Source: an uncultured Bryobacteraceae bacterium (GTDB lineage: Bacteria; Acidobacteriota; Terriglobia; Bryobacterales; Bryobacteraceae). Taken from it: DNA of 46,594 bases. A program made the translations under genes and the position numbers. The notes under the pieces are model-generated. The model searched no databases. It was not told where the DNA came from and saw only the letters and a list, made by a program, of their open reading frames with translations. Below are positions 10,501-45,035 of this stretch, piece by piece; the stretch's first letter is position 1, and each line of letters opens with the position of its first letter. Where the stretch lies: the NCBI GenBank assembly GCA_964247955.1, contig CAXTWT010000002.1, forward strand, positions 1 through 46,594. Direction: 5' to 3'.

Positions 10501-10723
10501 TCCCATGGCAACGTCGACCTCGCGGGGCGCGGAAGTGCAGAGGCCCTTGGCGACGGTGGTGATTGGCGGTCTGATCACGGCCACGATGCTGACGTTGTAT
10601 CTGCTGCCCATGCTCTATCCATGGTTCAGCAAAAAAGACAGCCAGGATCAGCAAAACGAAAAGCAAAAGCAATCAGCGGAACCCGAACGCGTATCCGAAC
10701 TGTCCACACTTTTCGAGGCTTGA
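7586..10723 (+). CDS. Heavy-metal efflux RND transporter, CzcA/CusA family
   Basis: 1045 aa with 12-TM RND architecture. Diagnostic HME-type segments are present (LGAVDFGMIVDGAVVMVEN, EVQRPLATVVIGGLITATMLTLYLLP). Confidence 0.95.
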   Translation: MLDFFLNNRWLVLIALLGLMAGGVYTMLHLNIEAYPDLTNVQVLVTTEVPGMSPVEVEQLVTFPVESTLLGMPKTQVVRSVSKLGLSMITVVFDDSMNIYLARQMVSERLGEIRSRIPPGLEPQLGPLATAFGEVYQFTLRGGKADLMQRKTLLDWVVRYDLRTIPGVSEMNSWGGYTKQYTVEVDPLTLRRYGLTVHDVVQQVSENNANFGGGFISHNEEQYTIRGIGRANGIEDLERIVMRSQNGVPILLRDVASVRQLPYPRQGAIMSDGQGETVCGMVIITKGSNGRQLISDVKQRMTSLKLPDGVTIAPFYDQSEVIDATIATVKHNLIEGSVLVIVVLLLFLGNWRAALVVASVIPLSLLFGFLGMAAFGVSANLMSLGAVDFGMIVDGAVVMVENSVRRLEAGQDDDPKETIRRAAHEVARPITFGVAIIIAVYLPIFTLQGLEGRMFHPMAITVCAALAGSLLLALFAIPTVSSFALRQRRKENSSRETSRKRGWFDSLRNHYGRSLHWTLNHRWPILAGALALVFAAAVSLKFIGTEFMPKLDEGSLVVTSRKLPGISLDESIYLGNQIEKVIRGFPEITHVVSKLGRPDQATEAMGIEESDSYLTLAPQKDWKCCKSKEELTEKLSKALNEIPGTAFVFTQPMEMRMDEVVTGIRGDLALKIFGEDLDTLDQLATKAVSLLSTVKGAAEVQKDSSMGVAELRVGVNRPEMDRYGLNVSDVRELVETMLGGKQVSEMVEGERRFGIAVRLPETYRNNIDALGDLYLMAPNGERVQLRQVAELKVVRGPEMVNREGARRRVAVQASVSGRDLGGFVQDAQQKIAKGMRLPAGYTLDWGGEFENQQRANKRLAFVLPISIVIIFGLLYATFQSARQALLILMIVPFALVGGVAALWVRGLDLSLSASIGFIALFGVAVLNGVVMVSHIDALRAGGKKVLEAIKEGAEDRLRPVLMTASVASLGFIPMATSTSRGAEVQRPLATVVIGGLITATMLTLYLLPMLYPWFSKKDSQDQQNEKQKQSAEPERVSELSTLFEA

Positions 10724-25749: not shown

Positions 25750-26985
25750 ATGCGTAAACGAACTGTTTTTGTTCTGGTCATTCTCTTCCTGGTTGGCTTA
25801 CTGAGCGCCCTTCTTTTTACCAGGAGGGGAAGGAACCCCGTTTCGGAGAGCGCGGTCTCTCCCTTGCCCACCGCTTCAGTCGCTCCTGTCACGCGGGGGA
25901 CGATCTCGAGCAACCTCAGAATTGCGGGCCAATTTACGCCTTATCAGGAAGTGGATCTGCACGCGAAGGTATCGGGCTATATTCGCCGCATCAATGTCGA
26001 TATCGGTGACCGTGTGCGAGCCGGGCAGACGATTGCCATTTTGGAGGTGCCGGAGTTGAACGCGCAAGTGGCGGGCGCGCAAGCCGAAGTCCGGCATAGC
26101 CGATCGGAGATTGTGCGCGGCCAGAGTGAAGTGACGCGGGCCGAGTCCAATTATGCGGCCATCCACGCCGCTTACACCCGGCTGAAACAGGCTTCCGAAC
26201 AGCGCCCCGGCTTAATTGCACAGCAGGAACTGGACGATGCGCGCGCGAAAGATCAGAATGCCGAAGCGCAAATCAATGCCGCTAAAGCAACGCTCGAAGC
26301 GACCCAGCAGCAGCTCGGCGTGTCGCAAGCAAACGACCAGCGCGTGCAAGCGATGTCCGACTACTCGGTCGTGACCGCACCCTTTAACGGTGTAGTCACC
26401 AGGCGATATGCCGATACCGGCTCCCTGATTCAGGCCGGGACCGCCTCGAACACACAAGCTCTCGCGCTGGTAAGCCTCGCACAAAGCGACCTGCTCCGGC
26501 TCCGGATGCCGGTCCCAGAGGCTGACGTCCGCTTCATTCAACCCGGAGAGGCCGTGCAAGTCACTGTACAAGGCGCCGCCCGAGTCTTCACCGCCAAAAT
26601 CACGCGCTTCACGCGCGCTCTGGATGCAGCCACGCGCACCATGCTGGCTGAAGTCGATGTGCCCAACGCCGATCTCAGCTTAACTCCCGGAATGTACGCC
26701 GATACAGAGATCGTGCTGCAGCGGCATGATCATGTGTTAAGTATCCCCACACAGGCGATTGTGCAAGACGCCGACCGCCCCTACGTGCTGGTAGTCAATG
26801 CCGCCCAGCGGGTCGAAAGAGAGAACGTTCAACTGGGCATCCAAGGCCAAAACAGAACCGAGATCACCGCCGATCTTGCGGAAGGCAATTTAGTCATCCT
26901 CTCAGGACAAACGAACTACCAAGTCGGCGAACTGGTCCGCCCGCAAGTAGCCCCTCCCTCGACCAGCCAGAAAGAGGCCCAGTAG
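25750..26985 (+). CDS. RND efflux periplasmic adaptor subunit (HlyD/AcrA family)
   Basis: 411 aa with an N-terminal anchor MRKRTVFVLVILFLVGLL, a lipoyl-like domain plus a long coiled-coil hairpin (..AQVAGAQAEV..ATLEATQQQL..), and VVTAPFNGVVTRR. Confidence 0.9.
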   Translation: MRKRTVFVLVILFLVGLLSALLFTRRGRNPVSESAVSPLPTASVAPVTRGTISSNLRIAGQFTPYQEVDLHAKVSGYIRRINVDIGDRVRAGQTIAILEVPELNAQVAGAQAEVRHSRSEIVRGQSEVTRAESNYAAIHAAYTRLKQASEQRPGLIAQQELDDARAKDQNAEAQINAAKATLEATQQQLGVSQANDQRVQAMSDYSVVTAPFNGVVTRRYADTGSLIQAGTASNTQALALVSLAQSDLLRLRMPVPEADVRFIQPGEAVQVTVQGAARVFTAKITRFTRALDAATRTMLAEVDVPNADLSLTPGMYADTEIVLQRHDHVLSIPTQAIVQDADRPYVLVVNAAQRVERENVQLGIQGQNRTEITADLAEGNLVILSGQTNYQVGELVRPQVAPPSTSQKEAQ

Positions 26986-26987
26986 GA

Positions 26988-29900
26988 ATGTCTTTTTTCG
27001 CGATTAAATATCCCTTCTTTATTTTGATGCTCTGTCTCATTGTGGTGGTTGTCGGCGTGACCACGATCTTCCGCATGCCGGTGGACCTTTTTCCCGAGGT
27101 CAACATTCCGGTCGTGGTGGTGGCGACATTTTATTCGGGCATGCCGCCCCAGCAAATCGAATCGAATATCACCAACAGCTATGAGCGCTTCTTCACCTTG
27201 GGCAGCGGCATCGATCACATTGAATCCCGCTCTCTCCCGGGCGTCAGCCTGATCAAGATTTTCTTCCAGCCCGGCGTCGATTCGAACGCCGCCGTCAGCA
27301 ACATTTCGAATCTCGCGATGGCCAATCTGCGCCGCTTGCCGCCCGGCACCTTGCCGCCCGTGGTCCTGAAATTCGATGCCTCCAATCTGCCGGTTTGCCT
27401 GATCACGCTGAAGGGGCAGGGGCTGAACCAGACCCAACTGAAAGATTTGGCCCAGTTCAGCGTTCGTAACCAGGTGGCGAACGTGCCCGGAGCTTCGGTG
27501 CCGCAGCCCTACGGCGGACGGTACCGGCAAATTATGGTCTATGTCGATCCGCTGAAGCTCGAAGCGCACCAGATGAGCGTCATGGACGTCGTCCACTCCC
27601 TTAATGAGTCGAATTTGATTCTGCCGGCGGGCGATGTGCGGATTGGCACCAAGGATTACAACATCTATGCCAATAGTCAGGTGCCGATTGTCAGTGAGAT
27701 TAACGATCTGCCGCTAAAAACGGTGGGCGCTGCGTCCGTGATGGTGGGAGACGTGGGAAAGGCCGTCGATGGCGGCCAGTTGCAAACCAACATCGTTCGC
27801 GTCGACGGGCAAGAGTCGGTGTACATTCCCGTCCTCAAGCAGGGAGGAAACTCCAACACCATCACGATTGTCAATGGCGTCAAGGAAGCGGTTTCCCATC
27901 TCCTCGACATTCCTAAGGTGCTGAAGACGGAAGTTGTTTTCGACCAGTCGGTTTTCGTCAAAATGGCCGTGAAGAATGTCATCAATGAGGGCGCCATTGG
28001 TCTCTGTCTCACGGCCCTGATGATTCTCCTGTTTCTCGGAAACGTCCGTGCGACCGTGGCGGTGCTGCTATCGATCCCCATCTCGTGCCTCGCCACCTTT
28101 CTCGGCCTGAACCTGGGCGGCAACTCCATCAACACCATGGTGCTGGGCGGTCTGGCCCTGGCGCTCTCCCGCTTGATCGATAACTCCGTTGTGGTGCTCG
28201 AAAACATCTTCCGCCATATGGAAATGGGAGAGGACCCGGTCACCGCCGCCGAACGCGGCGGCAAAGAGGTGCAGTTGGCGGTGCTCGCTGCCACCATCAG
28301 CACCTGCATTGTGTTTTTCCCGGTGGTCTTGCTCTACGGCGTCAGCAAATATCTGTTTACCGCGCTGGCCTTAGCCGTCGTGCTGGCGCTGTTCGCTTCG
28401 TATCTGGTCGCTATGACGGTCGTGCCTCTGTTCTGCGCCCGGTTCATACGGCTCGACCCGGCCCATGCCCACTCCGAGGCGCCGGCTCACCAGCCGGAGG
28501 GGAGCATTCAGAAGAAGCGCAGTCTCTTTGCAGTTATTGTCAATGGCTTTAATTCTGGGTTTCACCAGTTGCAATCCCGCTACAATTCCGCTATCGGCCG
28601 CTGCCTGGAGCATCCGATTCTGGTAGTCAGCGCGTTTAGTCTCTTTGTTGTCCTCAGCTTGGCATTTTACCCGGCGTTGGGTAAAGCCTTTTTTCCACGC
28701 ACGGACCCCGGCCAGTTCGTGGTGAACGTCAAAGTGCCTGCCGGAACACGCATCGAGGTTACGAACGATATCATCGCCCGCATCGAGCAGGACATCCGTC
28801 ACGTCGTTTCACCGGAAGACCTGAACATGGTGGTCTCGAACATCGGCATCACGCCCGACCTTTCGGCCATCTATACCTCCAACTCCGGCATGCACACCGC
28901 CTTTATTCAGGTAAGCCTCCAAGAGGAGCACAAAGTGGGCAGTTATGCTTACATGGAGCTCGTCCGCCGTCGGCTGGCCAGTGACTTTCCCGATGTGTCC
29001 ACCTACTTTCAGGCGGGCGGCCTGGTCGATTCGGTGGTCAATCAAGGCAAGCCTGCTCCGGTCGATATCCAAGTGGGCGGCAACGACTTACCGCAGGCTT
29101 TTCGCCTCGCGCAGCAGATCGCCGCTCGCCTCCATGGTCTTTCGACCGTGAGTGACGTGTTGATCCCGCAGGACCTCGACTATCCCGGCATTGAGCTGAA
29201 CATCAATCGCGAGCGGGCCAGCCTGCTCGGCATCACGCCGAAATCGGTTGTCGATAACGTGATTACCGCCCTCACTTCCGACGGCATGATCGCGCCCAGC
29301 TTCTGGGTCGATCCGAAGACCGGGAACAGCTACATGCTGACCGTGCAATATCCCGAGACGGAGATTCAGACCATGACGGATTTCAAACAAATCCCGCTAC
29401 GTTCCCCGGAAAGCAGGGAAACCACACCGCTCGAATCCGTCGCTGACTTGAAGCAGATCGACACGCCGACCGAAGTCGATCATTATCAGCTCCGCCGTCA
29501 ATTCGACATCTACGTCATGCCCAAGGCCGAGGACCTCAGCCGGGTCAATGCGGACGTAGTCTCCGTATTATCCAAGATTCGGAAGCCGGACGGCGTGACG
29601 ATCGGGGTGCGCGGCGCGGTCCTGGACATGCAACAATCCTTTGCAAGCTTCGGCATCGGTCTCGTCCTGGCTATCGTGCTCGTCTATCTCGTGCTCATGG
29701 CGCAGTTCGCCTCCTTCTCCGATCCCTTCATTATCCTGCTTGCTATCCCTCCAGGGCTCTCCGGCGTGCTGATCTTTCTGCTCGTCACAGGAACCACCCT
29801 GAACGTGATGTCGCTGATGGGCATCGTCATGATGACCGGCATTGCCGTGTCTGACAGCATCCTCATTGTCGAGTTTGTCGGCACCTTGCGCAAGGATGGC

Positions 29901-30158
29901 TTGCCGCTCAAAGAAGCGCTGGCCGAAGCCTGTAAAGTGCGTCTGCGCCCCATTCTGATGACCACGCTCGCCACCATTCTCGGCCTGATACCGATGGCGC
30001 TGGCGCTCGAGCCGGGAAGCGAGCAGTATGCTCCGCTCGCGCGCGCCATCCTCGGCGGCTTGTCTGTGTCCGGCGTTATCACCGTCTTTCTGGTACCCAC
30101 CGCTTACCTGTTGATGCATCGCCATGACAAGGATGTTTTGGCCCGAGAGGCTGCTTAG
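26988..30158 (+). CDS. RND multidrug/hydrophobe-amphiphile efflux permease (AcrB-like)
   Basis: 1056 aa with 12-TM RND architecture and two large periplasmic loops. It begins MSFFAIKYPFFILMLCLIVVVVG and has a conserved TM4 region LGGLALALSRLIDNSVVVLENI. Confidence 0.93.
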   Translation: MSFFAIKYPFFILMLCLIVVVVGVTTIFRMPVDLFPEVNIPVVVVATFYSGMPPQQIESNITNSYERFFTLGSGIDHIESRSLPGVSLIKIFFQPGVDSNAAVSNISNLAMANLRRLPPGTLPPVVLKFDASNLPVCLITLKGQGLNQTQLKDLAQFSVRNQVANVPGASVPQPYGGRYRQIMVYVDPLKLEAHQMSVMDVVHSLNESNLILPAGDVRIGTKDYNIYANSQVPIVSEINDLPLKTVGAASVMVGDVGKAVDGGQLQTNIVRVDGQESVYIPVLKQGGNSNTITIVNGVKEAVSHLLDIPKVLKTEVVFDQSVFVKMAVKNVINEGAIGLCLTALMILLFLGNVRATVAVLLSIPISCLATFLGLNLGGNSINTMVLGGLALALSRLIDNSVVVLENIFRHMEMGEDPVTAAERGGKEVQLAVLAATISTCIVFFPVVLLYGVSKYLFTALALAVVLALFASYLVAMTVVPLFCARFIRLDPAHAHSEAPAHQPEGSIQKKRSLFAVIVNGFNSGFHQLQSRYNSAIGRCLEHPILVVSAFSLFVVLSLAFYPALGKAFFPRTDPGQFVVNVKVPAGTRIEVTNDIIARIEQDIRHVVSPEDLNMVVSNIGITPDLSAIYTSNSGMHTAFIQVSLQEEHKVGSYAYMELVRRRLASDFPDVSTYFQAGGLVDSVVNQGKPAPVDIQVGGNDLPQAFRLAQQIAARLHGLSTVSDVLIPQDLDYPGIELNINRERASLLGITPKSVVDNVITALTSDGMIAPSFWVDPKTGNSYMLTVQYPETEIQTMTDFKQIPLRSPESRETTPLESVADLKQIDTPTEVDHYQLRRQFDIYVMPKAEDLSRVNADVVSVLSKIRKPDGVTIGVRGAVLDMQQSFASFGIGLVLAIVLVYLVLMAQFASFSDPFIILLAIPPGLSGVLIFLLVTGTTLNVMSLMGIVMMTGIAVSDSILIVEFVGTLRKDGLPLKEALAEACKVRLRPILMTTLATILGLIPMALALEPGSEQYAPLARAILGGLSVSGVITVFLVPTAYLLMHRHDKDVLAREAA

Positions 30159-30161
30159 TCC

Positions 30162-31550
30162 ATGCGCTCTTTTTCCCTCGCTGCCGCTCTCCTGCCCGTG
30201 CTCCTCGGGGCGCAAACGCCTTCTGTCTCTTTGCTGCCGGGTGCTCCCCTAACTCTTCTCGCGCCCGAGCCCGGTCAAACGGGCAATCGCAGCTCTGCTC
30301 CCGCGCCGCCGTCCACCAATCAGCCTCCTCTCCTCACCCGCCAGGAGGCCGAGAAAATAGCGTTGGCCAATAACCCACGGGTGAAAGTCAGCCTTCTGCT
30401 CGCCCGGGTGCAGGCGCAAGTTGTGCGCGAAACGCGCGCGGACGAACTGCCCAACGTCAACGGCGACCTGACCGCCGTCGAAGCCTTGCAGGCGAGCCGG
30501 CTCTCTTCCGGTTCCCTCACGTCATCCCGGTTACTCCAGCACGCCGGCATGGGAGTTGAACTGGACCAGCTCCTCACCGATTTTGGCCGTACCCGGAACC
30601 TGGTGGCCTCCGCCCGGCTGCGGGAGAAAGCTAGGCAGGCAGACGTGAACGCCACCCGGGAAGACATTGTGATAGCCACGGATCAGGTCTTCTTTCAAGC
30701 CATTGAGGCACAAGCCACGCTGCAGGTAGCGCAGGGCACCGTCGAGGCCCGGCAGACCCTCGTTGACCAAGTCACCGCGCTCACGGCCAGTCAGCTCAAA
30801 TCCGATCTCGACCTTAGTTTCGCCCAGGTCAATCTGTCTCAGGCGAAGCTCCTGCAGCTCAATGCGCAAGGCAACCTTGCTGCCGCGAAAGCAGCGCTGG
30901 CGGCCGTGCTGGGTTACGATCACCCGCTTGACTATCAACTGGTGGAGGAGACGGGCGATCTGCCCACACTGCCCCCTCAGGCCGATCAACTCATCACGGA
31001 CGCCCTGCAAAACCGGCCTGATCTGCAATCCCTGCGTTTCTCCGAGCAGGCTGCGCAGAAGTTCAGTTTGGCGCAGCGCGAACAACTGCTGCCCACGGTC
31101 AGTGCCCTGGGCGTGGTCGGTTATACGCCGTTCGGCTCCAGCCAATACTTCACCACCAACTGGTACGGTGCGATCGGTGTCAACATCAGTGTGCCGATCT
31201 TCAACGGCTTCCGTTACACGGCGCAAGCCGCCGAAGCGGCTCTCCAAGCCACCGCGCAGACCGAGCGCACTCGTGATCTTCGCAACCAAGTGGTCCGGGA
31301 CGCGCGCACCGCCTGGCTCAACGCGAACGCCGAACGGCAACGCGTCACCGTCACCGGCGAGTTGCTGAAACAGGCGAACGTAGCGCTCAGTCTGGCCCAA
31401 ACCCGATACCAGCTTGGCCTGAGCTCTATTGTCGAACTCAGTCAGGCACAGCTGCAGCAAACGCAAGCCGCCATCGACAACGCGAACGCCCGCGCCCAGT
31501 TCGGCTTAGCCTACGCCGATCTGCAGTTCCAGACCGGAGCCACCCGGTAA
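30162..31550 (+). CDS. TolC-family outer-membrane efflux protein
   Basis: 462 aa with a signal peptide and two OEP repeats (LTRQEAEKIALANNPRVK...; ...LITDALQNRPDLQSL..). It is the third gene of the pump operon. Confidence 0.9.
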   Translation: MRSFSLAAALLPVLLGAQTPSVSLLPGAPLTLLAPEPGQTGNRSSAPAPPSTNQPPLLTRQEAEKIALANNPRVKVSLLLARVQAQVVRETRADELPNVNGDLTAVEALQASRLSSGSLTSSRLLQHAGMGVELDQLLTDFGRTRNLVASARLREKARQADVNATREDIVIATDQVFFQAIEAQATLQVAQGTVEARQTLVDQVTALTASQLKSDLDLSFAQVNLSQAKLLQLNAQGNLAAAKAALAAVLGYDHPLDYQLVEETGDLPTLPPQADQLITDALQNRPDLQSLRFSEQAAQKFSLAQREQLLPTVSALGVVGYTPFGSSQYFTTNWYGAIGVNISVPIFNGFRYTAQAAEAALQATAQTERTRDLRNQVVRDARTAWLNANAERQRVTVTGELLKQANVALSLAQTRYQLGLSSIVELSQAQLQQTQAAIDNANARAQFGLAYADLQFQTGATR

Positions 31551-33560: not shown

Positions 33561-33730
33561 GCGTGATCGCGGTATAACTGCCGTATCCATTCCCGTCAGT
33601 TTATACAACTCGGCCGAGCGAGCCGACAGTATGGCCTCAATATCACTGCTAGGATGGCCGGTACGTCATGCAGGGCATGATGGTCCCGGCGATCGACAGA
33701 GCATGGTTACTTCCCTGGAAACAAGTTATT

Positions 33731-33886
33731 GGAGAGTGTAAAATTTTGGGAGCAAACGGACCTATTGATCAAGCGACTGAGGGCATCAGCGTGGATCGGA
33801 AAGCCGGGTCCTGTTTGTGAAACGTGTTTTCTCGTTCGTCATTGAGCACCCGAGTGTGTGTTTGCCCCCAAAATTTTACGCTCTCC
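33731..33886. mobile_element. MITE-like element: 27-bp inverted repeats around 102 bp
   Basis: ggagagtgtaaaattttgggagcaaac (33731-33757) versus the reverse complement of gtttgcccccaaaattttacgctctcc (33860-33886) matches at 25/27 positions. There is no ORF inside and no clear duplication. Confidence 0.55.
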
Positions 33887-33973
33887 TTTATGGCCAGAGT
33901 TCAGATGCCAATCCAGTTTCCTCGCCAGCTAACAAGCCGATTACCAAACTAACCCCTGTCAATCTTTGAAATG

Positions 33974-34004
33974 CATGACTGGGCCGCCGGTCCTGACAGT
34001 TTCC
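33974..34004. repeat. Solo IS6-type terminal repeat remnant
   Basis: catgactgggccgccggtcctgacagtttcc resembles the right end of the IS6 copy (gcatggtgtgccgccagtcctgacactttc, 2223-2252) in the same orientation. No transposase gene is attached. Confidence 0.5.
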
Positions 34005-34204
34005 TTTCCCACTACTGATGGCACACGTCGACGTATAGGCAGGGATGAAGTCACTCTGGCAGGCCGACTTTCCTGTGTCTGTTAGTTACCCCAGGGTGCT
34101 TGGACTGGCAAGAATTCCGACTGTGTCCTGGCACAGCGGAGAACAGTCCCGATACCCGTCGCTCTCCCGGTAACGTTATCCTTGTTATCCTATATAGCAG
34201 AACC

Positions 34205-34564
34205 GTGTTTCGTGCGTTCGCCCATTTGCTTCTTGTGTTGCTGCTCGTCACCACTCTGGTGGGGGGCGGCTGCCTTTCCTGTGAACAGTACTTTATGTTC
34301 GGAGGGCCGAAGAGCTGCTGTGCGCCCAATGGGCGTTGCAAAACGAAAGCTCCTGTAAAAAACGGCTTCGGTCGCGACTGTAAGCAGATCACTTTCGACC
34401 ATCAAAAGGGGATGGATCTTCCTTTTGATCTGCCGGTGGTGACCGTTGGCAGAAGGGAGCTACCTGTTTCCAGGACCAACTTTTTCCCACGCTGGTACGA
34501 AACGACCTCCGTCGCCCCCTCGCCCCCTGACTTGCAAGTCTTGCATTCCACCTTCCTGATTTAG
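34205..34564 (+). CDS. Small N-terminally anchored Cys-rich protein (uncharacterised family; paralogue of 41356..41730)
   Basis: Probable GTG start. It reads FRAFAHLLLVLLLVTTLVGGGCLSCEQ...SCCAPNGRC...DLPFDLPVVTV...LQVLHSTFLI*. Its architecture and C-terminus parallel the ORF upstream of the multicopper oxidase. Confidence 0.5.
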   Translation: MFRAFAHLLLVLLLVTTLVGGGCLSCEQYFMFGGPKSCCAPNGRCKTKAPVKNGFGRDCKQITFDHQKGMDLPFDLPVVTVGRRELPVSRTNFFPRWYETTSVAPSPPDLQVLHSTFLI

Positions 34565-34660
34565 TTTCTCCTTTCCACCCTCGACGAAGCGCTGGCAGAC
34601 TTGCGTCTACGCGTTTTGGCCTGCCACTTCGGCGGGCCAAAGCAAGGAAAGGAGAAATCT

Positions 34661-35518
34661 ATGTTGTGTTTCCGTACGACTCCGTGGGCGGTCGTAACCA
34701 TGGCCATGCTCGCGGTAGCGTTTCCTCTGGGTGCTGCCGATCATGGGCCGGTTTTTGGGCTGGCGACCCCGACCAATCCCCAAGGAGGGTGGAGTTTTGA
34801 TTTGGGTGTCAACGGGCGAGGGGGCACCAGCGGCATCAGTTCAACGCTGGAAGCAGAACTCACCTACGGTGTCACCCAGAACCTGAAGCTGGCCGTGTCC
34901 GCGCCGGTCGTGCTTCAGCCTGACCCCTACCCCCGTTCGTCCGTCACCATGAACACTCCCCTCAGTGGGGATTTCAGTGGCTTGGCCTGGTGGCGATTTC
35001 AGAAAAAAGATTTAGCGGGTAAGCGAGTGGAAAGTACCGTCGTAGGTGGCATCCTCGTCCCGGGGCCGCAGCCGGAAGACGGAGTCTATCGGGGCCTCCA
35101 CAGCGGCGTGGGATACCTGGTGGGCGGGGTAACGGGCGTGGCATCCCGCAGTCACTATGTGTGGGTCGGCGCCAGCTACCAGCGGTACGCGGAATCGCAA
35201 GGCGACCGCCGTCCCGATCTGCTCTCCTACACAGCAGTCTACGGTTATCGACCTCTCTCCTGGCGCACGGATTATCCACGTTGGGATTGGCGCCTCTTCG
35301 GGGAGCTGACCGGAGAGCACACCGGGACACTGCAGCGGCAAAGGATCGAGCTGCCCGGCAGTCGTGCCAATCAAATCTTTCTCGGCCCGAGCCTTTTGGG
35401 CGTTTATCGCGACATCGGCATCGAAGCCGGAATCCAGTTTCCCGTGTACCCCAATGTCGGGCCGCTCTACCCCCCCGAGCGCTACCGCTTCGCCCTCAAC
35501 TTTGCCTACTTCTTTTGA
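34661..35518 (+). CDS. Outer-membrane beta-barrel protein (possibly MetA/phenol-degradation-type channel family)
   Basis: ATG is preceded by aaggaaaggag. Signal peptide MLCFRTTPWAVVTMAMLAVAFPLGA, amphipathic strand pattern, and a C-terminal ..YRFALNFAYFF. Confidence 0.65.
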   Translation: MLCFRTTPWAVVTMAMLAVAFPLGAADHGPVFGLATPTNPQGGWSFDLGVNGRGGTSGISSTLEAELTYGVTQNLKLAVSAPVVLQPDPYPRSSVTMNTPLSGDFSGLAWWRFQKKDLAGKRVESTVVGGILVPGPQPEDGVYRGLHSGVGYLVGGVTGVASRSHYVWVGASYQRYAESQGDRRPDLLSYTAVYGYRPLSWRTDYPRWDWRLFGELTGEHTGTLQRQRIELPGSRANQIFLGPSLLGVYRDIGIEAGIQFPVYPNVGPLYPPERYRFALNFAYFF

Positions 35519-35530: not shown

Positions 35531-36031
35531 ATGCGAAAAAGACTCTCATTTCTCGTTTGTGCGCTCCTGGTAGCTGCCCTTCCAGGGCAGGCCGAGTTAC
35601 TGCAAGTGGATCTATCTATTTTCGGCATGGATTGAATGACCTGCGCCCACGTGGTCCACGTGGCATTAAAGAAAGTGCCGGGGGTGGAATCGGTCGAGGT
35701 GAGCTTAAATAAGGGGCTTGCGACCGTGAAGTTGAAGCCAGGGAATACCGTGGCCGTCCCACAATTCTGGCAACTGCTCCATGAGAAGGGATACACGCCG
35801 AAAACAACGGCGGTTTCCGTCCGGGGAGAACTGGCGGAGGGGCCGGGACACGTTCAACTGAGGGTGACGGGAACGAAAGATACCCTGGCGCTCGTAGCTG
35901 ATCCGAAGAATCCCGCCGCATATAACGAAGTTTCTAAGAAACTCGGCCAGACCGTCACTCTGCAAGGCGTGATGGTGCCGGGCAAGGACTTGAAAGCGGC
36001 CACGCCGCTTCAGGTCAGTCAGGTGAAGTAA
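35531..36031 (+). CDS. Periplasmic MerP-like heavy-metal-associated (HMA) protein with in-frame TGA at the first metal-binding Cys (candidate selenoprotein, or pseudogene)
   Basis: MRKRLSFLVCALLVAALPGQA (signal peptide) ELLQVDLSIFGMD-[TGA 35633-35635]-MTCAHVVHVALKKVPGVESVEVSLNKGLATVKLKPGNTV..LLHEKGYTPK aligns column for column with MerP (TVTLSVPGMTCSACPITVKKAISKVEGVSKVDV...). The ORF track only sees 35636..36031. Confidence 0.7.
35647..35663 (+). other. SECIS-like hairpin 11 nt downstream of the in-frame UGA
   Basis: CCACGUGG-U-CCACGUGG. Pairs are C35647-G35663, C-G, A-U, C-G, G-C, U-A (and possibly G-C), with an apical GGUCC/GUC loop. G35645-C35664 can extend the stem with one bulged C. Confidence 0.55.
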
Positions 36032-37801: not shown

Positions 37802-40528
37802 TCACAGCTTGGCCTTTCGCAAGCGCAAGGCGTTTACAATGACTGATACCGAACTGAAGGTCATCGCGGCGCTTGCGATCATCGGGCTGAGCAGAATGCC
37901 AAAGAAGGGATACAGAACTCCCGCCGCAATCGGGACTCCCAGCACGTTGTAAATAAAAGAGAAGAACAGATTCTGGCGAATGTTGCGCATGGTCGCGCGG
38001 CTTAAGCGGAGCGCGCGCGCCACGCCGCGCAGATCACCTTGCACAAGCGTAACCCCGGCGCTTTCCATGGCGACATCGGTTCCCGTGCCCATGGCGATGC
38101 CGATATCCGCTTGGGCCAGAGCCGGAGCGTCGTTCACGCCATCTCCGGCCATCGCCACCACCTGACCAGCTGCTTGCCGTTTTTTGACCGCTTCCGCTTT
38201 TCCTTCCGGCAACATCTCTGCTTCCACATCGTCGATGCCTAGACGTTGGGCGACCGCCAGCGCCGTGGTCCGGCTGTCCCCGGTGAGCATGGTCAGGCGC
38301 ACTTTTTCGCGATGCAGCATTGCCACGGCTTCGAGCGTAGAAGACTTGATCGGGTCAGCCACGCCGACCAAGCCGGCGGGCTGGCCGTCTACCGCCACCA
38401 GCATCACTGATTGCCCTTCGGAGCGGAGTTTCTCGGCTTCCGTCGATAAGCCGTCAGTACGGATGCCGAACTGCTCCAGCAAGGCGCGGTTTCCGAGCAA
38501 AACCAGATGACCGTCCACGGCGCCCCGGACTCCTTTGCCGGTCAGCGAGGCAAATTCGGTCGCCTTGGGCAGGGTGAGATGCCGTGCCTTTGCCCCACTG
38601 ACAATCGCTTGCGCCAACGGATGTTCGCTCGCCTGTTCGAGACTCGCCACGAGCGTGAGTAGTTCGTTTTCCTCACCCGCCTTTGATAACGAAAGAACCG
38701 TGGTCAGTTTGGGTTTGCCTTCGGTTAACGTGCCCGTTTTGTCCACCACGAGCGTGTTCATTTTCTCCAGCCGTTCGAGCGCTTCCGCATTCCGCACCAG
38801 CACACCGGCCGTCGCGCCGCGGCCGGTGCCGACCATGATGGACATCGGCGTAGCAAGTCCTAAGGCGCAGGGACAGGCGATAATGAGCACCGCGACGGCA
38901 TTGACAAAGGCATGGCCGAGACGCGGTTCCGGTCCCCAGAGTGCCCACGCCGCAAAGGTCAGAACAGCGGCCAACACCACAGCCGGAACAAAATAGGAAG
39001 CCACGGCATCCGCCAAGCGCTGAATCGGCGCGCGGCTCCGCTGCGCTTCGCTTACGAGACGCACGATCCGGCTTAAAAGCGTATCACGGCCGACGCGTTC
39101 GGCTCGCATCAGAAAGCTGCCCGTTCCATTCACGGTGCCGCCAGTGACGCGCGTGCCCGCCGTTTTCTCGACCGGAATCGGTTCACCGGTCATCATGGAC
39201 TCATCGACGGAACTATTTCCCTCGGTCACCGCGCCGTCTACCGGGACCTTTTCTCCGGGACGAACGCGCAGGGCGTTGCCAATCTGGATTTGTTCGAGGG
39301 GCACGTCCCGTTCTTCACCCGAGGCGTCCACCACCCGAGCGGTTTTCGGTGCCAGACCCAGGAGGGACTTCAAGGCGCTGCTCGTTTGGCTACGGGCGCG
39401 CAACTCCAGAACTTGGCCTAGCAGAACCAGAGTCACAATCACCGCCGCCGGTTCAAAATAAAGAGGTACTTGGTCCGCATGAACCCGGAACGAGGCGGGA
39501 ATCACAAAGGGGAAAAGCAGGGCGACAAGACTGAACAGATAGGAAGCGCCCGTTCCCAAGGCAATCAGGGTGAACATGTTCAGATGACGGTTGACCACCG
39601 AAGCCCAGCCCCGCTCGAAAAACGGCCAGCCGCCCCACAGCACGATGGGGGTCGCCAAGGCAAATTGCAGCCAGCCCGTTAGGATGGTCGAAAGCCGGTG
39701 CGCTCCCGGAATCATGTCAAGAACCATGAAAATCAAAAGGGGAGCGGTCAGGAGGGCGCTGATCCGGAGCCGTCGAGTCATATCGGCCAACTCGGGATTC
39801 ACTTCCTCTCCGGTGACTTCGCGCGGCTCTAAGGCCATTCCGCAAATCGGACAAGAACCGGGCTCACTCCGCACAATTTCGGGGTGCATAGGGCACGTGT
39901 ATTCCGTGCGAGTGGCGGGCAGCTGAAAGGTCGCGGGCTCAAGCGCCATGCCGCACTTTGGGCAGGCGCCCGGCTCCCGCCGGCGCACCTCCGGGTCCAT
40001 GGGACAGGTGTACTCAACATCTTGTGTGCCAGCCGGGGCCGCACTCGCCGCTGTCTCGGGTGCTAAATACTTCTCGGGACTTATTTTGAATTTGTCGAGA
40101 CAGGAGGAACTACAAAAGTAGTACCGCGTTCCTCCGTGCTCGACCGTGCCGACAGCATCCTGCTCCTCGATATCCATCCCGCAGACAGGATCGTGATGAA
40201 GAACCGGAGTGGTCTCCGCCGCTGGCTTTGCGACCGTCTTTGCCCCTCCACGCAGGGGAACAATCGTTTGCTTCGCTGCCTGCTCGTCTCCGCAGCCACA
40301 TCCACAATGACTCTGGCCTACCACCGGAAGCGCCGAGGAGCGGTTGACATAGTGAGCTGGATTCTGTTCAAACTGCTGCCCGCAACGCGGACAGCAGAAG
40401 TAATAGTCCTTGCCTTCATAGCTGACATGACCAGCCGCTGTCTTTTCCTTCACCAGCATCCCGCAAACGGGATCTTGGAGAGCTGGCTTTTGCGCGACGT
40501 TCATAACCTTCTCTTTCCAGGCATCCAC
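37802..40528 (-). CDS. copA: Copper-translocating P1B-type ATPase with YHS/TRASH and CPxxP..CPxCGM N-terminal metal-binding domains
   Basis: 908 aa with TGEP, CPC ([13 protein letters not shown]), [17 protein letters not shown] and MLTGD motifs. The N-terminus has two PVCGM...YYFC..C...F...P modules and two YTCPM(D/H)PE...CP.CGMALEP modules, and no ferredoxin-fold HMA domain. Confidence 0.95.
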
Positions 40529-40564
40529 ACGATTCCGGTGAGGATGCCCTTTACCTGCTAACGC

Positions 40565-40711
40565 TTACTTCCCGGCATACTGCGCCGGGTTGGCATCAAA
40601 CTTTTTCTGGCATCCGGCAGAACAGAAGTAATACGTTTTCCCTTTGTATTCGCTCTGACCGGCTGCTTTCTTCGGATCGACCTGCATGCCGCAAACAGGA
40701 TCTTTCTGCAT
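40565..40711 (-). CDS. Small YHS/TRASH-domain metal-binding protein (48 aa; below the ORF-track cutoff)
   Basis: I translated the minus strand by hand: MQKDPVCGMQVDPKKAAGQSEYKGKTYYFCSAGCQKKFDANPAQYAGK*. The ATG is preceded by GGAAGGAGGTG. It lies between csoR and copA. Confidence 0.8.
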   Translation of the reverse strand: MQKDPVCGMQVDPKKAAGQSEYKGKTYYFCSAGCQKKFDANPAQYAGK

Positions 40712-40755
40712 GCGCTTCACCTCCTTCCATCCCCTCCCGTGAGCGCCGGCTTTGC

Positions 40756-41136
40756 CTAACGCAGGTGTTTGTAAATCAGCTCCAGCAGTTCTTCCTGCTG
40801 CGCTGTCGCTTGTTCCTCATTGCCGCTGCGAATGGCTTGCGCGGCGCAATGCTGCAGATGGTTTTGCATCAACGCTCGCGAGACGCCGCGCAAAGCTTCC
40901 TGGACCGAGGCAATCTGAACCACAATATCCGCGCAGTAACGTTCTTCGTCCACCATCTTTTGTAGACCCCGGATCTGTCCTTCGATGCGACGCAGCCGCC
41001 GCAAGTTGGACTGCTTGATTTCTGGATTGACAGCGACGGCTTTTCGCTCCGCTGCATTCCAAGAACAGGCACAAGGAACTGGCTCCGGAGGAGCAACCGA
41101 AGGGGATGCCTCTGCTACTCGCTTGATTGGTTTCAC
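40756..41136 (-). CDS. csoR: CsoR/RcnR-family metal-sensing repressor (Cu-type C-H-C ligand set)
   Basis: The core reads NLRRLRRIEGQIRGLQKMVDEERYCADIVVQIASVQEALRGVSRALMQNHLQHCA. It has a ~40-aa N-terminal extension and a GTG start. Confidence 0.88.
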   Translation of the reverse strand: MKPIKRVAEASPSVAPPEPVPCACSWNAAERKAVAVNPEIKQSNLRRLRRIEGQIRGLQKMVDEERYCADIVVQIASVQEALRGVSRALMQNHLQHCAAQAIRSGNEEQATAQQEELLELIYKHLR

Positions 41137-41145
41137 TCTGCTTGC

Positions 41146-41174
41146 ATGATATACCCCCTCCCCCTATTTGTCAA
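41146..41174 (-). promoter_or_regulatory. Near-consensus sigma-70 promoter with embedded G-tract operator for the csoR-YHS-copA operon
   Basis: Minus strand: TTGACA (41174-41169), a 17-nt spacer AATAGGGGGAGGGGGTA, then TATCAT (41151-41146). The spacer holds ATA-G5-A-G5-TAT (41151-41167). The -10 element ends 9 nt before the GTG, implying a leaderless or near-leaderless transcript. Confidence 0.55.
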
Positions 41175-41355
41175 GAAGTTGATTAGCACCCACGATGGGC
41201 TATGGCCGGAAAACCTGTTACTCGAGAATGGATCGCCAGCTTCGAGAAAGGGGAGCGAAAACAATCCATTTTGGCGCCTCTCAACGGCTGGATTCTGCGT
41301 CCAAATAAATACCCGGCAGGAGTATGCAGAACGTGTTACTGTCGAAGGTAGGGAT

Positions 41356-41730
41356 ATGAATCGGCGCGGCATACAGTTGGTTGTTCTTCTGTTGGTGACG
41401 GCTTTGTTTGCCGGCTCCCAGTGCCTTGCTTCGTGCCTCCTCGCAGCAGAAGCGAGCCCTTCTCCCTGTTGCCATCAGCATTCCCATTCGCATCCAGGAA
41501 AGACGGATCAGCATTGCGGGCAGCAACACCCGCCGTACTTTAGTCCCGAGCATACGGATGATCTGGAGAAAAGTAGCTTTGCTTCGACAGCCGGGTTGCC
41601 CTTTCCGGTCACAGTCTCCTCGGCGCAGGCCCTCACCAGCACGTTCTTTCATTCTTGGGGGAGCCTAGGGGAGCGCGGGGTGTCTCCCGGTGCAAGCATC
41701 TATCTGTCCTTATCCACTCTGCGCATTTAG
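41356..41730 (+). CDS. Small N-terminally anchored Cys/His-rich protein (paralogue of 34205..34564)
   Basis: MNRRGIQLVVLLLVTALFAGSQCLASC...SPCCHQHSHSHPGKTDQHCGQQH...GLPFPVTVSS...IYLSLSTLRI*. It sits immediately upstream of the multicopper oxidase. Confidence 0.6.
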   Translation: MNRRGIQLVVLLLVTALFAGSQCLASCLLAAEASPSPCCHQHSHSHPGKTDQHCGQQHPPYFSPEHTDDLEKSSFASTAGLPFPVTVSSAQALTSTFFHSWGSLGERGVSPGASIYLSLSTLRI

Positions 41731-41864
41731 ACTTCTTTCCCTATCACTTTTATTAGGCGCTCGGTCCGGCTGACACCGCTGTGCGGAGCCATGCCGAGGC
41801 ACCGGGGCGAATTACGCCTTGCTTTCGTATTGAATTCATCAGATTGGAAGTGGGAAAGAGAATT

Positions 41865-43439
41865 ATGAGTCATCGTCGGAATTTTTTTCGAAATACGTTC
41901 GGTCTGGGAGCCGGGTTGTTCTCGCTCTCGCAAGCCGGTGCTGCCCAGGAAGGGCATGACAGGCGGCAGCATCAACAGATGCAAAGCACCGCAGCGGAGA
42001 AGTTGAAAGACAGCCAAGCAGCAGGTCCCTCGGTCCTGGTACAAACTCCCGATTTGAAGGACTTGCCTTTCACTGTGGATAACGGCGTGAAGGTATTTCA
42101 CTTGATTGCAGAACCAGTGCGGCAACAGATTGCGCCGAATAAAACCATTGATGTTTGGGGGTTCAACGGCAGCGCGCCGGGACCCACCATTCAGGTGACG
42201 CAGGGAGATCGCGTTCGCATCATCTTCGATAATCATTTGCCCGAGCCGACCTCCATGCACTGGCATGGTTTTGAGATTCCCATTAGCATGGACGGAATGC
42301 CGGGCATTAGCCAGGACCCGGTCAAGCCGGGGGGACGCTTTGTGTACGAATTCACCCTGCACCAGGAGGGAACGTATTTCTATCACTCGCACTTGGCGAT
42401 GCAGGAAATGATGGGTATGTTGGGCGCGTTCATCATGCATCCCAAGGTGCCTTATGCGCCTCAGATCGACAAGGACTTCGTCATCATGCTGCAAGAGTAT
42501 GCGGTGTTACCGAACAATACGGTGCCGAACACTATGAATATGGAGTTCAACTGGCTCGTGTTCAATGGAAAAGCCGCTCCCGCTACCACTCCCTTAGTGG
42601 TGAAATTGGGAGATCGCGTCCGAGTTCGCCTCATTAACTTAGGAATGGATCACCATCCCATTCACCTGCATGGCCACACCTTCTACGTCACCGGAACCGA
42701 AGGGGGACGGATTCCCGAATCGGCTTGGTTCCCCGGCAATACTGCCCTGGTGGGTGTCGCGCAGTCTCGCGACTTTGAATTTGTGGCGAATAACCCAGGA
42801 GCCTGGATGCTGCACTGTCATCTGCCGCATCACATGATGAACCAGATGTCGTCGAATGTGGGGCCGATGTCGCGGATGGGCCGGGGTATGCCAGCCGGTG
42901 TCGACATGAATAATGGCATGGGCATGCTGAACGGCACGCCCGGAGCTCCGGGCGGCGAGGATTACGGCCCCAGTCTGGGTCGTGGCTTAGGGGTAGGTTC
43001 GACGAACGATCAACCGGTTGCTAATACCCCGCTTTCCCCAGAGAAAGCAAGGGCGGCGATGCAGGGAATGCAGCATGACATGGCCAGCATGCCGGGGATA
43101 GATCACAGCAAAATGGGCGGCATGAGTGGCATGGACCACAGCAAAATGGGCGGCATGGAGCACGGCGGCATGAACATGGATCTGGGCGACGATGTGGCCA
43201 AGAACGCCAACAGTGTGCCCGGCTTCCCGCAGGACGCCTATATGGAAGGTCCCATGATGAACATGGACAACCTGGTCGTGAGACCGCAGAACTACGGTTT
43301 GCGTCCGGGCTGGAGCGGCTTCATGCAGGGAATGATGAGTTTTGTGCGCGTACTGCCTCCGGACGAGTACGACCAGGTGATGGAGCAAATGCGCCAAGGC
43401 TTGCCGATGACTATGCCGGGCATGCAGCACTCGATGTAG
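41865..43439 (+). CDS. Multicopper oxidase (CopA/PcoA-like) with Tat signal and Met-rich C-terminal region
   Basis: Twin-arginine signal MSHRRNFFRNTFGLGAGLF. Copper ligand motifs are HWHG, HSH, HPIHLHGH and HCHLPHHM. The Met/His-rich stretch is MPGIDHSKMGGMSGMDHSKMGGMEHGGMNMD. Confidence 0.93.
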   Translation: MSHRRNFFRNTFGLGAGLFSLSQAGAAQEGHDRRQHQQMQSTAAEKLKDSQAAGPSVLVQTPDLKDLPFTVDNGVKVFHLIAEPVRQQIAPNKTIDVWGFNGSAPGPTIQVTQGDRVRIIFDNHLPEPTSMHWHGFEIPISMDGMPGISQDPVKPGGRFVYEFTLHQEGTYFYHSHLAMQEMMGMLGAFIMHPKVPYAPQIDKDFVIMLQEYAVLPNNTVPNTMNMEFNWLVFNGKAAPATTPLVVKLGDRVRVRLINLGMDHHPIHLHGHTFYVTGTEGGRIPESAWFPGNTALVGVAQSRDFEFVANNPGAWMLHCHLPHHMMNQMSSNVGPMSRMGRGMPAGVDMNNGMGMLNGTPGAPGGEDYGPSLGRGLGVGSTNDQPVANTPLSPEKARAAMQGMQHDMASMPGIDHSKMGGMSGMDHSKMGGMEHGGMNMDLGDDVAKNANSVPGFPQDAYMEGPMMNMDNLVVRPQNYGLRPGWSGFMQGMMSFVRVLPPDEYDQVMEQMRQGLPMTMPGMQHSM

Positions 43440-43463
43440 AGCCGGGGAAAACAGAAAGACACC

Positions 43464-45035
43464 ATGAACAAATACCTTGCTCTCCTTTCTTTTTCGATCT
43501 GGTTCGGCTTGGCCCATAGTGCGCTGGCACAGAACATGGCTGCGGGCGCTGCCCTGCAGCAAAATCAGAACCCAAGTTCACAGAAACCGATGGATCATGG
43601 CAACATGCCCGGCATGCAGCACGACTCTATGCCGGGCATGGATCACAGCCAGATGCCCGGCATGCAACATGATATGGGAGGCATGCAGCACAATCAGCCC
43701 GCGCGGGCGACGGATCATCCGGCGGAAAACACCCGTCCCCAGACGCCTGTTCCCGATCTACTCCAAGAGGTGGTGGCGCGGTCCGCCCTGCCGCTCCATC
43801 AATTCGAGCAGTGGGCTCTGGCCACGAATCCGACCTTACAGCAAGCGAATGCCATTGTCCGGCAATCGGCGGGACAGGCCCGGCAAGCCGGTTTGTTGCC
43901 GAACCCTTCGGTAGGTTATCAAGGGGAGCAAATCCGCGGCGGCGCCTACGGAGGCGGCGAGCAGGGGGCCTTTGTCCAACAAAACATCGTGCTCGGCGGC
44001 AAGTTAGGGCTGCGAAGGAATATCTACGAGCAGCAGCGTCGGATGGATGAAGTCGGAGTGACGGAGCAGCGCTATCGAATTTTGAGCGACGTGGGGCAAA
44101 GCTTCTACGCGGCCCTAGCCGCCCAGGAGATCGTGGCTGTGCGTCATCGGCTTCTCGGACTGGCCATGGACGCTGTTGAAACGGCTCACCAGTTGGCTAA
44201 TGTCGGACAGGCAGACGGGCCCGATGTTCTGCAATCCGAAGTCGAAGCCGAGCAGGCCAAGGTCGATTACCTCACTGCGCAACGCACCTATCTGCAGGAG
44301 TTCCGCGCTTTAGCGGCGCTGGTCGGGAAGGCCGACTTGCCGCCGGCACCGCTCACCGGTGATCTCGCCAACCCGCCTTCGATCAACGAGGGTGAGATCG
44401 TCGAGCAAATTGTCGAGGGAAGCCCCGAAGTAAAACGGGCGCAGCAAGACATCCTCCACGCCGAAGCCGAATTAAAAAGCGCCCAACGAGAGCCGATCCC
44501 GGACTTACAGCTCCGCGCCGGCTTTGAGCAGAACTATGAACGGATCACAGAATCGAGTCTCAGGCCGGTGGGCCTGCAGGCGTTTGCCACTGTAGGCATC
44601 AATCTTCCCCTGTTTAATCGGAATCAAGGCAATGTGGCGGCGGCCCGGGCCGACTTGGAACGGGCGCAGGCCGAAGTGAGCCGCGTGCGGTTGTCGTTAC
44701 GCCGCAGCGCACAGCCTTTGTTGCAAGCCTACCTTTCCGGGCAGGTCGAAGCGAACCGCTATCAGAAGGAGATGATCCCGCGAGCCCAGCAAGCTTATCG
44801 GCTTTATTTTGCCAAATACCAGCAGATGGGCGCGGCTTATCCGCAAGTGATTGTGTCCCAGAGAACTCTGTTTCAGTTGCAAGTCGGCTACATTAACGCT
44901 CTCGAAGGACTCTGGAGCACGGCCATTGCTCTCCAAAATTATCTGCTGACTGACGGCCTGACGGCGCCGACACCGTTCGGCACAACCAGCACCACCCTAA
45001 ACCTGCCCAATGCCGGCGGAGCGGGCGCGCCATAG
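43464..45035 (+). CDS. TolC/OEP-family outer-membrane protein with N-terminal Met/His-rich repeats
   Basis: Signal peptide MNKYLALLSFSIWFGLAHSALAQ, then MDHGNMPGMQHDSMPGMDHSQMPGMQHDMGGMQHNQ, then two OEP repeats (..LHQFEQWALATNPTLQQA.., ..IVEGSPEVKRAQ..). Confidence 0.88.
   Translation: MNKYLALLSFSIWFGLAHSALAQNMAAGAALQQNQNPSSQKPMDHGNMPGMQHDSMPGMDHSQMPGMQHDMGGMQHNQPARATDHPAENTRPQTPVPDLLQEVVARSALPLHQFEQWALATNPTLQQANAIVRQSAGQARQAGLLPNPSVGYQGEQIRGGAYGGGEQGAFVQQNIVLGGKLGLRRNIYEQQRRMDEVGVTEQRYRILSDVGQSFYAALAAQEIVAVRHRLLGLAMDAVETAHQLANVGQADGPDVLQSEVEAEQAKVDYLTAQRTYLQEFRALAALVGKADLPPAPLTGDLANPPSINEGEIVEQIVEGSPEVKRAQQDILHAEAELKSAQREPIPDLQLRAGFEQNYERITESSLRPVGLQAFATVGINLPLFNRNQGNVAAARADLERAQAEVSRVRLSLRRSAQPLLQAYLSGQVEANRYQKEMIPRAQQAYRLYFAKYQQMGAAYPQVIVSQRTLFQLQVGYINALEGLWSTAIALQNYLLTDGLTAPTPFGTTSTTLNLPNAGGAGAP

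Follow-up and report, generated by a model that had tools for sequence, protein, structure and literature searches.

Reports of selenocysteine (Sec, written U in motifs) in the metal-binding CxxC motifs of HMA (heavy-metal-associated), MerP and MerT-type proteins go back to 2008, and that concept is left unchanged by the gene described here, which lies at positions 35531 to 36031 on the forward strand of a 46,594-nucleotide stretch of contig CAXTWT010000002.1 from an uncultured Bryobacteraceae bacterium (46.6 kb; this whole stretch is called the window below). Selenoproteins recorded in the GOS (Global Ocean Sampling) ocean metagenome survey include a 'Mercuric transport protein MerP', a 'putative mercuric transport protein' and a UxxC cation-transporting ATPase (PMC2398784). 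The UxxU metal-binding protein NF041115 and MerT-type selenoproteins are listed by a 2026 review and by NCBIfam, and the review makes no mention of PF00403 or of Acidobacteria. Because HMA selenoproteins were already known, the novelty of the present gene is lower than was implied by a preliminary description of the window, which had proposed that an in-frame TGA in this gene encodes Sec. Judged from its sequence and those of its relatives, we consider it probable (about 0.88) that positions 35531 to 36031 form one gene for a secreted selenoprotein, and from the evidence below we infer both that the residue at the UGA is Sec rather than another and that the protein is exported. The features of the gene are:

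35531..36031, forward strand: complete predicted selenoprotein gene, 166 codons including one Sec-UGA, then TAA
35531..35593, forward strand: predicted signal peptide of the Sec export type, residues 1-21 (MRKR, a hydrophobic core and PGQA, then ELLQ), from sequence inspection
35612..35794, forward strand: HMA domain, residues 28-88, motif G-M-D-U-M-T-C, Pfam PF00403
35633..35635, forward strand: UGA, putative selenocysteine, residue 35 of the precursor and first metal ligand, from TGA invariance and alignment with Cys
35642..35644, forward strand: TGC, Cys38, second metal ligand (nt 10-12 from the UGA; TGC in 44 and TGT in 9 of 53 sequences)
35647..35663, forward strand: hairpin of the selenocysteine insertion sequence (SECIS) type, nt 15-31 from the U of UGA; 35647-35652 pair with 35658-35663, plus G35653-C35657
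35798..36028, forward strand: C-terminal OB-fold domain, residues 90-166, from an AlphaFold model and Foldseek

The gene thus has the layout signal peptide, HMA domain with a UxxC site and OB-fold domain, and the read-through product reaches the cutoff of no NCBIfam model. Its second-best NCBIfam match, NF041115, likewise has an HMA-type domain with Sec in place of Cys in a CxxC metal site, but the present protein reaches 45.4 of the 95 bits required, and that model of 74 positions has two Sec (UxxU), whereas here Sec would occupy the first ligand only (the second is TGC or TGT in 53 of 53 sequences) and a signal peptide and an OB-fold domain are added. MerP (TIGR02052), the periplasmic Hg(II)-binding protein of Tn501 and Tn21 (1afi, 1osd), is also a secreted HMA protein with a GMxCxxC motif (TMt, the Foldseek TM-score, 0.70-0.79), and its gene, like the present one, adjoins a gene for a small, MerT-like membrane protein that carries a CC pair. 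The match to the MerP model is 40.9 bits against a cutoff of 92.55, however, and the present protein differs in its Sec first ligand and extra OB domain. The four-gene cassette in which the gene lies has no MerA beside it and adds two unrelated secreted proteins. The UxxC P-type ATPase and the GOS MerP selenoproteins share with it Sec in the soft-metal CxxC sites of metal-transport proteins (PMC2398784; PMC13188914), and are set apart, by their descriptions, in having an ATPase domain or in being rare marine or symbiont sequences (1-2 each in GOS), in contrast to the present two-domain and putatively periplasmic protein, which is common in soil Acidobacteriota. MerT-like and HMA modules with selenium also occur together in NF045683, the 'MerT/CopZ fusion-like heavy metal transport selenoprotein', and in MerT-family CU selenoproteins (bioRxiv 10.1101/2022.07.06.499078), but here the modules are separate genes, the score against NF045683 is 18.8 bits (cutoff 375), and the CC membrane partner falls outside the model. 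The CopZ models NF047957, NF033794 and NF033795 give 49.2, 38.5 and 38.2 bits against cutoffs of 85, 95 and 91, and CopZ metallochaperones are small, cytosolic and single-domain, in contrast to a protein with a signal peptide and a second domain.

In the window sequence the frame of ATG 35531, which is preceded about 8 nt upstream by AAGGA, reads MRKRLSFLVCALLVAALPGQAELLQVDLSIFGMD, then TGA at 35633-35635 on the forward strand, then MTCAHVVHV (MTCAHVVHVALKK...), and is open to TAA 36029-36031; the coordinates given by the preliminary description, in which this ATG opens a signal peptide and the first HMA strand, are those of the sequence. A mechanical list of open reading frames (ORFs) holds only a 131-aa piece of the gene, 35636-36031, starting at the ATG directly 3' of the TGA. 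The same choice of start pervades public databases: a protein search with the read-through product gave 964 matches, and 119 of the 120 listed are about 131 aa long (129-135) and start at the Met after the TGA, with names such as 'copper chaperone CopZ' or 'HMA domain-containing protein' on the closest entries. Every listed public entry for a TGA-bearing gene is the truncated form. This bears out the earlier proposal that the conventional ORF from 35636 is a mis-annotated selenoprotein, and almost all of the public 131-aa entries (119 of the 120 best matches) appear to be 5'-truncated products without signal peptide, strand 1 and key ligand. A large correction of the family's annotation is called for, and no NCBIfam model reaches its cutoff on either Sec or Cys forms.

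A scan of one genome per species provided 62 loci, nearly all from metagenome-assembled genomes (MAGs) of Bryobacterales or other Acidobacteriota. At 60 of these species-level loci, with 44-87% identity, the codon before the annotated Met is TGA, and the two without it are a rearranged copy (L023) and an unrelated CopZ-like protein from a clostridial Oscillospiraceae genome (L062). The TGA is invariant in 53 of 53 distinct aligned sequences, while the codon of the second ligand, Cys38, is TGA in none of them. Since TGA also ends 6 of the 22 other genes in the window, including the gene directly upstream, the genetic code is not reassigned. The preliminary description had itself raised a plain nonsense mutation (TGC or TGT to TGA) as the alternative, pointing to IS transposases with in-frame stops in the window, a remark that has lost its relevance here, and a pseudogene or an assembly error of this kind would fit the presence of only a single in-frame stop. 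Sixty independent assemblies at species level and hundreds of entries derived from metagenomes carry the same TGA, however, with purifying selection on both sides of it and no second disruption anywhere in the gene, and only two close homologues with TGC or TGT were found. Conservation at 60 loci excludes a simple nonsense mutation for practical purposes, and the chance that we attach to such an error is negligible. In the rearranged copy, L023, unrelated sequence at about 5990-6390 replaces the region 5' of the HMA core, so that signal peptide, strand 1 and TGA are gone, and the downstream membrane gene lies 675 nt from the start of the HMA match, compared with about 400 nt elsewhere; it is probably a disrupted copy.

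The sequence 5' of the TGA behaves as part of the same protein. At the 60 loci it consists of a variable signal peptide followed in frame by the conserved (A/S)E(L/F/V)LQxDLSIFGMD, and the 105 nt upstream of the TGA are open in frame in 59 loci. The signal-peptide region itself, though variable, keeps its n-h-c layout and a (G/V/S)(R/Q/H)A-E junction in the 60 loci. Over the 15 codons 5' of the TGA, minor-allele substitutions number 71, 27 and 286 at codon positions 1, 2 and 3, and 3' of the TGA the corresponding counts are 121, 53 and 212; because the substitutions fall mostly on third positions, the upstream stretch is translated in the same frame as the remainder. In solved HMA domains the first Cys of GMTCxxC aligns exactly to the TGA, which agrees with the earlier placement of the stop on the first metal ligand of GMxCxxC. 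A full-length Cys homologue (P0002, from L063) of 166 aa and 70% identity has TGT at this codon, reads ..DLSIFGLDCMTCAY.. and stands in the same gene neighbourhood. An exact-pattern scan for the Cys form in 241 million metagenome records made a single addition, L070, with TGC in the same cassette. These two are the only Cys forms found in the close subfamily:

L063, 1889-2389, forward strand: Cys form, TGT
L070, 3269-3769, reverse strand: Cys form, TGC

Exhaustive searching of 1.84 billion cluster representatives yielded 1690 matches. Full-length secreted GMDCxxCA proteins with the same layout account for 58 of the best 150 (representatives of 50%-identity clusters), and about 57 begin just before the second Cys (MTCAH, MICAH, MCAH) or shortly beyond it (MSVAIKK..). 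The DNA of two distant N-truncated forms, L071 and L072 (about 40% identity), reads FGMD-TGA-AICAHAVSV and FGMD-TGA-AVCAHAVRV, respectively, and because both carry TGA, Sec forms would reach well outside the subfamily of the window, within a larger Cys-containing family. As some 40% of the nearest GMD(C/U)xxCA clusters look N-truncated in the Sec style, this family could be among the larger unrecognised bacterial selenoprotein families. Nor do six Cys forms from this larger family score better against the NCBIfam model cutoffs than the read-through product. At L071 (2258-2695, forward strand) the cassette partners are absent, and a MerR-family regulator lies about 700 nt downstream.

These comparisons bear on whether the UGA might instead end a leader of 34 aa, with the adjacent AUG (UGA-AUG) re-initiating a separate cytoplasmic protein of 131 aa. 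An arrangement of two cistrons would account for the invariance of TGAATG in the 53 aligned sequences and for the 131-aa form of almost all database entries. Yet its second product would be without HMA strand 1, one metal ligand and the signal peptide, and the 13 residues upstream are a conserved strand 1 that continues without a break into the rest of the protein, both in the Cys forms and in the 58 distant full-length homologues. Furthermore, the U-A-I-C and U-A-V-C relatives keep TGA and hairpin but have no ATG after the TGA, and since the Cys forms also keep the Met (C-M-T-C), the Met after the TGA is a residue of the protein. We therefore regard two cistrons as extremely unlikely.

The case for a selenoprotein is further supported by the RNA structure that follows the UGA. 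In the window, CCACGUG-GUC-CACGUGG (35647-35663) forms 7 bp with a 3-nt loop, starting 11 nt past the UGA and exposing the bases that are invariant among relatives, G35654 and U35655; the 17-nt hairpin with G-U at its apex that had been described at this position is thus present as described. When nt 1 is set at the U of UGA, an alignment of the 53 distinct sequences shows a conserved stem of 6 bp (nt 15-20 with 26-31) that carries a 5-nt loop N-G-U-N-N, in which G22 and U23 are invariant. The six conserved pairs are intact in all but 4 of 318 alignment cells, and five of the six show compensatory double changes (CG to AU, CG to UA, AU to UG, GC to AU and UA to CG). The seventh pair (nt 21-25, in the window G21-C25, from its His codon) is present in 13 of the 53 sequences. 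When the structure with seven pairs was tested, double changes were found in six of the seven, 88% of cells could pair as against 20-48% with the partners slid by 1-3 columns, and the covariation score was 0.310, compared with 0.148 in shuffles (none of 500 reached 0.310) and 0.000-0.152 when slid. RNAalifold recovers the same stem from the alignment. Covariation in TGA-bearing homologues, which the preliminary description had named as a check on its proposal, is therefore present.

The pattern at synonymous sites in the stem is, in our reading of these sequences, the strongest argument for selection on the RNA. Nucleotide 18 is C in 53 of 53 sequences though T would be synonymous; T at nt 27 occurs in six sequences, the same six that have an A19-U27 pair; A at nt 30 occurs in seven, the seven with a U16-A30 pair; and a synonymous GCC to GCA change at nt 15 accompanies an Ala-to-Ser change at nt 31. 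Free variation is seen at the third codon positions of the loop, nt 21 and 24. The preliminary description had considered the HVVHV codons odd for this helix, as if constrained by RNA structure. HVVHV itself is a minority variant: at the hairpin codons relatives mostly have HVVDV, HVVNV, HIVDV or (Y/F)AVRG, and the seventh pair is confined to the minority noted above. The distant relatives L071 and L072 carry CCACGC-CGUG(A/C)-GCGUGG at the same place.

The SECIS of E. coli fdhF has a minimal 17-nt upper stem-loop that begins 11 nt after the UGA, with G23 and U24 in its loop and a bulged U17. The present element occupies the same span (nt 15-31) behind the same 11-nt spacer and also has G-U in its apical loop, but its G-U falls one position earlier, at nt 22-23 instead of 23-24, its stem lacks the bulged U, and the putative SelB site would be made up of 6-7 perfect pairs and 3 or 5 loop nucleotides. 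A published model of bacterial SECIS elements has a loop of 3-9 nt, a stem of 4-16 bp, a distance from UGA to loop of 16-37 nt (PMC13188914, Fig. 2), a G at loop position 1 or 2 with G or U as the next base, and a minimum free energy (MFE) of -7.5 kcal/mol or lower (PMC13188914). The element agrees with this model in its stem (6-7 bp), in its loop (3 or 5 nt, where G-U takes positions 1-2 or 2-3) and in its distance of 17-18 nt from UGA to loop, and the MFE of the 21-nt core is -10.2 kcal/mol in the window with a median of -9.1 kcal/mol; 40 of the 53 sequences are at or below -7.5 and the other 13 lie between -5.6 and -7.5. In the Cys form L063 the hairpin is weakened by an A.C mismatch and a G.U pair (-6.5 kcal/mol). 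Such a compact natural SECIS with many compensatory changes would be useful for SECIS models and for engineering. Taken together, the TGA at 60 of 62 loci, the compensated hairpin, the Cys forms and the coding pattern upstream support the earlier proposal of a Sec-containing protein.

At the protein level, Pfam PF00403 scores 45.7 bits on the read-through product against a cutoff of 24.8. In an AlphaFold model of the Cys form (confidence score pLDDT 71), residues 1-18 are below 50, a disordered N-terminus that is consistent with a signal peptide, for which cleavage after Ala21 is predicted. The HMA domain of the model has the order beta-alpha-beta-beta-alpha-beta and a Foldseek TMt of 0.79-0.84 to CopZ (6ff2, 2qif) and MerP (1osd). 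Foldseek with the full-length model returned HMA proteins only, plus low-TM alignments to two-domain SOD1 copper chaperones, and did not identify the C-terminal domain, which has no Pfam match either. Modelled alone, the C-terminal 77 residues reach a pLDDT of 82.8 with the order b1-b2-b3-helix-b4-b5, and match OB domains of AspRS, LysRS, E. coli YgiW (1nnx) and RPA with TMq 0.57-0.66, matches that are consistent but weak (E-values 0.007-0.05).

We propose that a ribosome arriving at UGA 35633 would meet the hairpin at 35647-35663, which, with G-U exposed at its tip, would recruit SelB carrying Sec-tRNA(Sec), so that selenocysteine would go in at residue 35 and translation would proceed to the TAA ending at 36031. 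The signal peptide would then export the precursor, giving a mature protein of about 145 aa in which a selenolate/thiolate pair (U-M-T-C) in the HMA domain would form the metal site, followed by the OB-fold domain. Most likely, the periplasmic selenoprotein would bind a soft thiophilic metal ion and pass it to its membrane partner, as MerP does to MerT. For a MerP-like relay function of this kind we see roughly even odds; the metal could be Hg(II) or Cu(I), and transfer would run from the selenoprotein to the membrane partner. The protein would add an exported metal-binding selenoprotein to the Acidobacteriota, a dominant soil phylum, and would link the selenium supply of soil to the handling of mercury-like or copper-like metals.

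The gene is the third in a conserved same-strand order of a Cys-rich lipoprotein-like protein, a 305-aa secreted protein, the selenoprotein and a MerT-like membrane protein. The other three genes are:

34205..34564, forward strand: cassette gene 1, small Cys-rich lipoprotein-like protein (mechanical ORF from 34100)
34601..35518, forward strand: cassette gene 2, 305-aa secreted protein ending ..FAYFF, directly upstream in 58 of 62 loci with 51-86% identity
36044..36469, forward strand: cassette gene 4, 141-aa membrane protein, directly downstream in 60 of 62 loci

The first of these genes, which probably starts at GTG 34205, encodes ..LVGGGC-LSCEQYF..KSCCAPNGRCK..DCKQITF..PSPPDLQVLHSTFLI, and clustering places a homologue at the corresponding position in about 50 loci, with motif matching finding one in 43 of the scanned sequences. 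The 305-aa protein, which may in fact begin at an internal ATG, could form a beta-barrel in the outer membrane, as its terminal aromatic residues suggest. The 141-aa membrane protein is separated from the selenoprotein gene by 12 nt and has a MerT-like architecture, with an invariant LLCCALPSL in its first hydrophobic segment and a C-x7-C loop; it keeps its CC pair and has no TGA, and many of its 2732 homologues have been named 'mercuric ion transport protein' by JGI. All three lack an assignment in Pfam or NCBIfam. When the cassette was scanned for promoters and terminators, no signal rose above those in shuffled sequence. The conserved four-gene unit thus defined is one of selenium-linked metal handling, if the reading of its third gene is right, and three of its proteins stand outside described families. 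Tentatively, and at clearly less than even odds, the cassette would be an undescribed selenium-dependent route for soft metals (Hg, Cu, Ag or Au) across the envelope, widespread in soil Acidobacteriota, in which Sec acts as a ligand and not as a redox centre. In such a route the parts would be the Cys-rich lipoprotein, the outer-membrane-type protein, the Sec-HMA-OB carrier and the MerT-like permease, and the Sec ligand would give the periplasmic carrier an advantage in affinity or exchange rate. In the window the cassette has as neighbours a P-type ATPase with YHS domains, a CsoR-type repressor, a multicopper oxidase and RND systems, and the copper-specific role that these suggest was rejected as a firm conclusion, the flanks not being conserved. 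MerR-family genes occur near the cassette in only a few loci (three, not counting L071, where the cassette partners are absent).

A number of observations weigh against reading this gene as a selenoprotein with a MerP-like role. Folded on its own, the window sequence does give the hairpin that had been predicted, but its stability is within chance (z = -1.1 and -1.2 against dinucleotide shuffles), and because of these values the significance of the hairpin comes solely from the relatives. The loop G-U falls on positions 1-2 of an invariant Val codon, so that the G-U alone cannot separate constraint on RNA from constraint on protein. The Cys form L070 keeps a perfect hairpin, and decay of the hairpin in Cys forms is thus seen only once, in L063; a perfect hairpin beside TGC suggests a very recent switch from Sec to Cys in L070. 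As regards function, hhalign of the 141-aa protein to Tn501 MerT was weak, at 13% probability, with the CC..P and Cys-loop motifs aligned, a resemblance only. Pfam scans of the window showed no MerA near the cassette. The flanks of the cassette differ between genomes, with copper genes in the window and ArsC, an ArsM-like methyltransferase, a CDF transporter or MerR-family genes elsewhere, and because of this the metal cannot be named. As regards decoding, tRNA and Pfam scans found no tRNA and no selA, selB or selD in the 46.6 kb of the window, and tRNA-Sec was absent from the window and from 62 scanned loci (L001-L060, L064 and L065). The main gap of the case is that a SelA gene was not placed in the same MAG as any cassette: the records with SelA loci (contig_57584_np1212, contig_6912, DATJMA01, DASQZT01 and contig_226368_np1212) are not among the cassette loci.

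The lineage itself is not without Sec machinery. Candidatus Solibacter usitatus is placed in Bryobacterales by GTDB. It is recorded as SelD+, SelA+ and SelB+ with 8 known selenoproteins (PMC5029168 Tables S1 and S2). With its SelA sequence, taken from the PMC1794560 supplement, more than 100 homologues were found (72-90% identity), and Bryobacteraceae MAGs are named as the source of some of them. A rival reading is that the UGA is recoded to another residue (Cys, Ser, Trp or other) by a suppressor or Sec-like tRNA. Allo-tRNAs that are possible nonsense suppressors occur in Acidobacteria, and selC* tRNA-Cys, a possible opal suppressor, occurs in other phyla (PMC5389517); one relative of 159 aa (P0388) reads ..IYGMDWAVCAH.., with W at the Sec/Cys site; and no Sec machinery was located in a cassette-bearing genome. 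The covarying hairpin, however, has the geometry and G-U loop of SelB-dependent elements, whereas general suppression needs no hairpin and would also act on the six TGA codons that serve as ordinary stops in the window. In addition, selC* has not been reported from Acidobacteria (PMC5389517), SelA is widespread in Bryobacteraceae, and the W of P0388, the only one among the best 150 representatives, is explained more simply, and probably, by a source pipeline that applied another code table to a TGA. Recoding to a residue other than Sec therefore seems to us very unlikely, and incorporation of Sec is the reading that we prefer.

Several minor observations were made in the course of this analysis. 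In five SelA loci on Bryobacteraceae-type contigs (L064, L065, L066, L068 and L069), a convergent EF-P gene follows selA in all five and selB does not adjoin selA, and in both of the SelA loci scanned for tRNAs a tRNA-Pro(CGG) precedes selA. The published Solibacter SelA model has an odd N-terminus (..GEWIRTTGLLVPNQALYQAEPRPE..) that resembles a translated tRNA gene. In the window, the region at 33578-34204, some 520-620 nt 5' of the cassette, has no convincing ORF, no Rfam match and one weak promoter-like match (33716-33744), and it is where any regulatory site for the cassette would lie; Rfam at gathering thresholds gave nothing in the window as a whole. Positions 4420-10723, 25750-31550 and 37802-45035 constitute an island of metal-resistance and efflux genes, which include two OEP/HlyD/RND sets, a P-type ATPase with two YHS and two HMBD domains, a stand-alone YHS protein, a CsoR-family repressor, a multicopper oxidase, a ClC channel, two-component systems and an IS66 transposase (16731-18266). 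An ORF on the forward strand at 41146-41730, between the genes for the CsoR-type repressor and for the multicopper oxidase, has no Pfam match and encodes a hydrophobic segment followed by a His/Cys-rich stretch (SPCCHQHSHSHPGKTDQHCGQQHPP), and its product could be a copper-binding protein.

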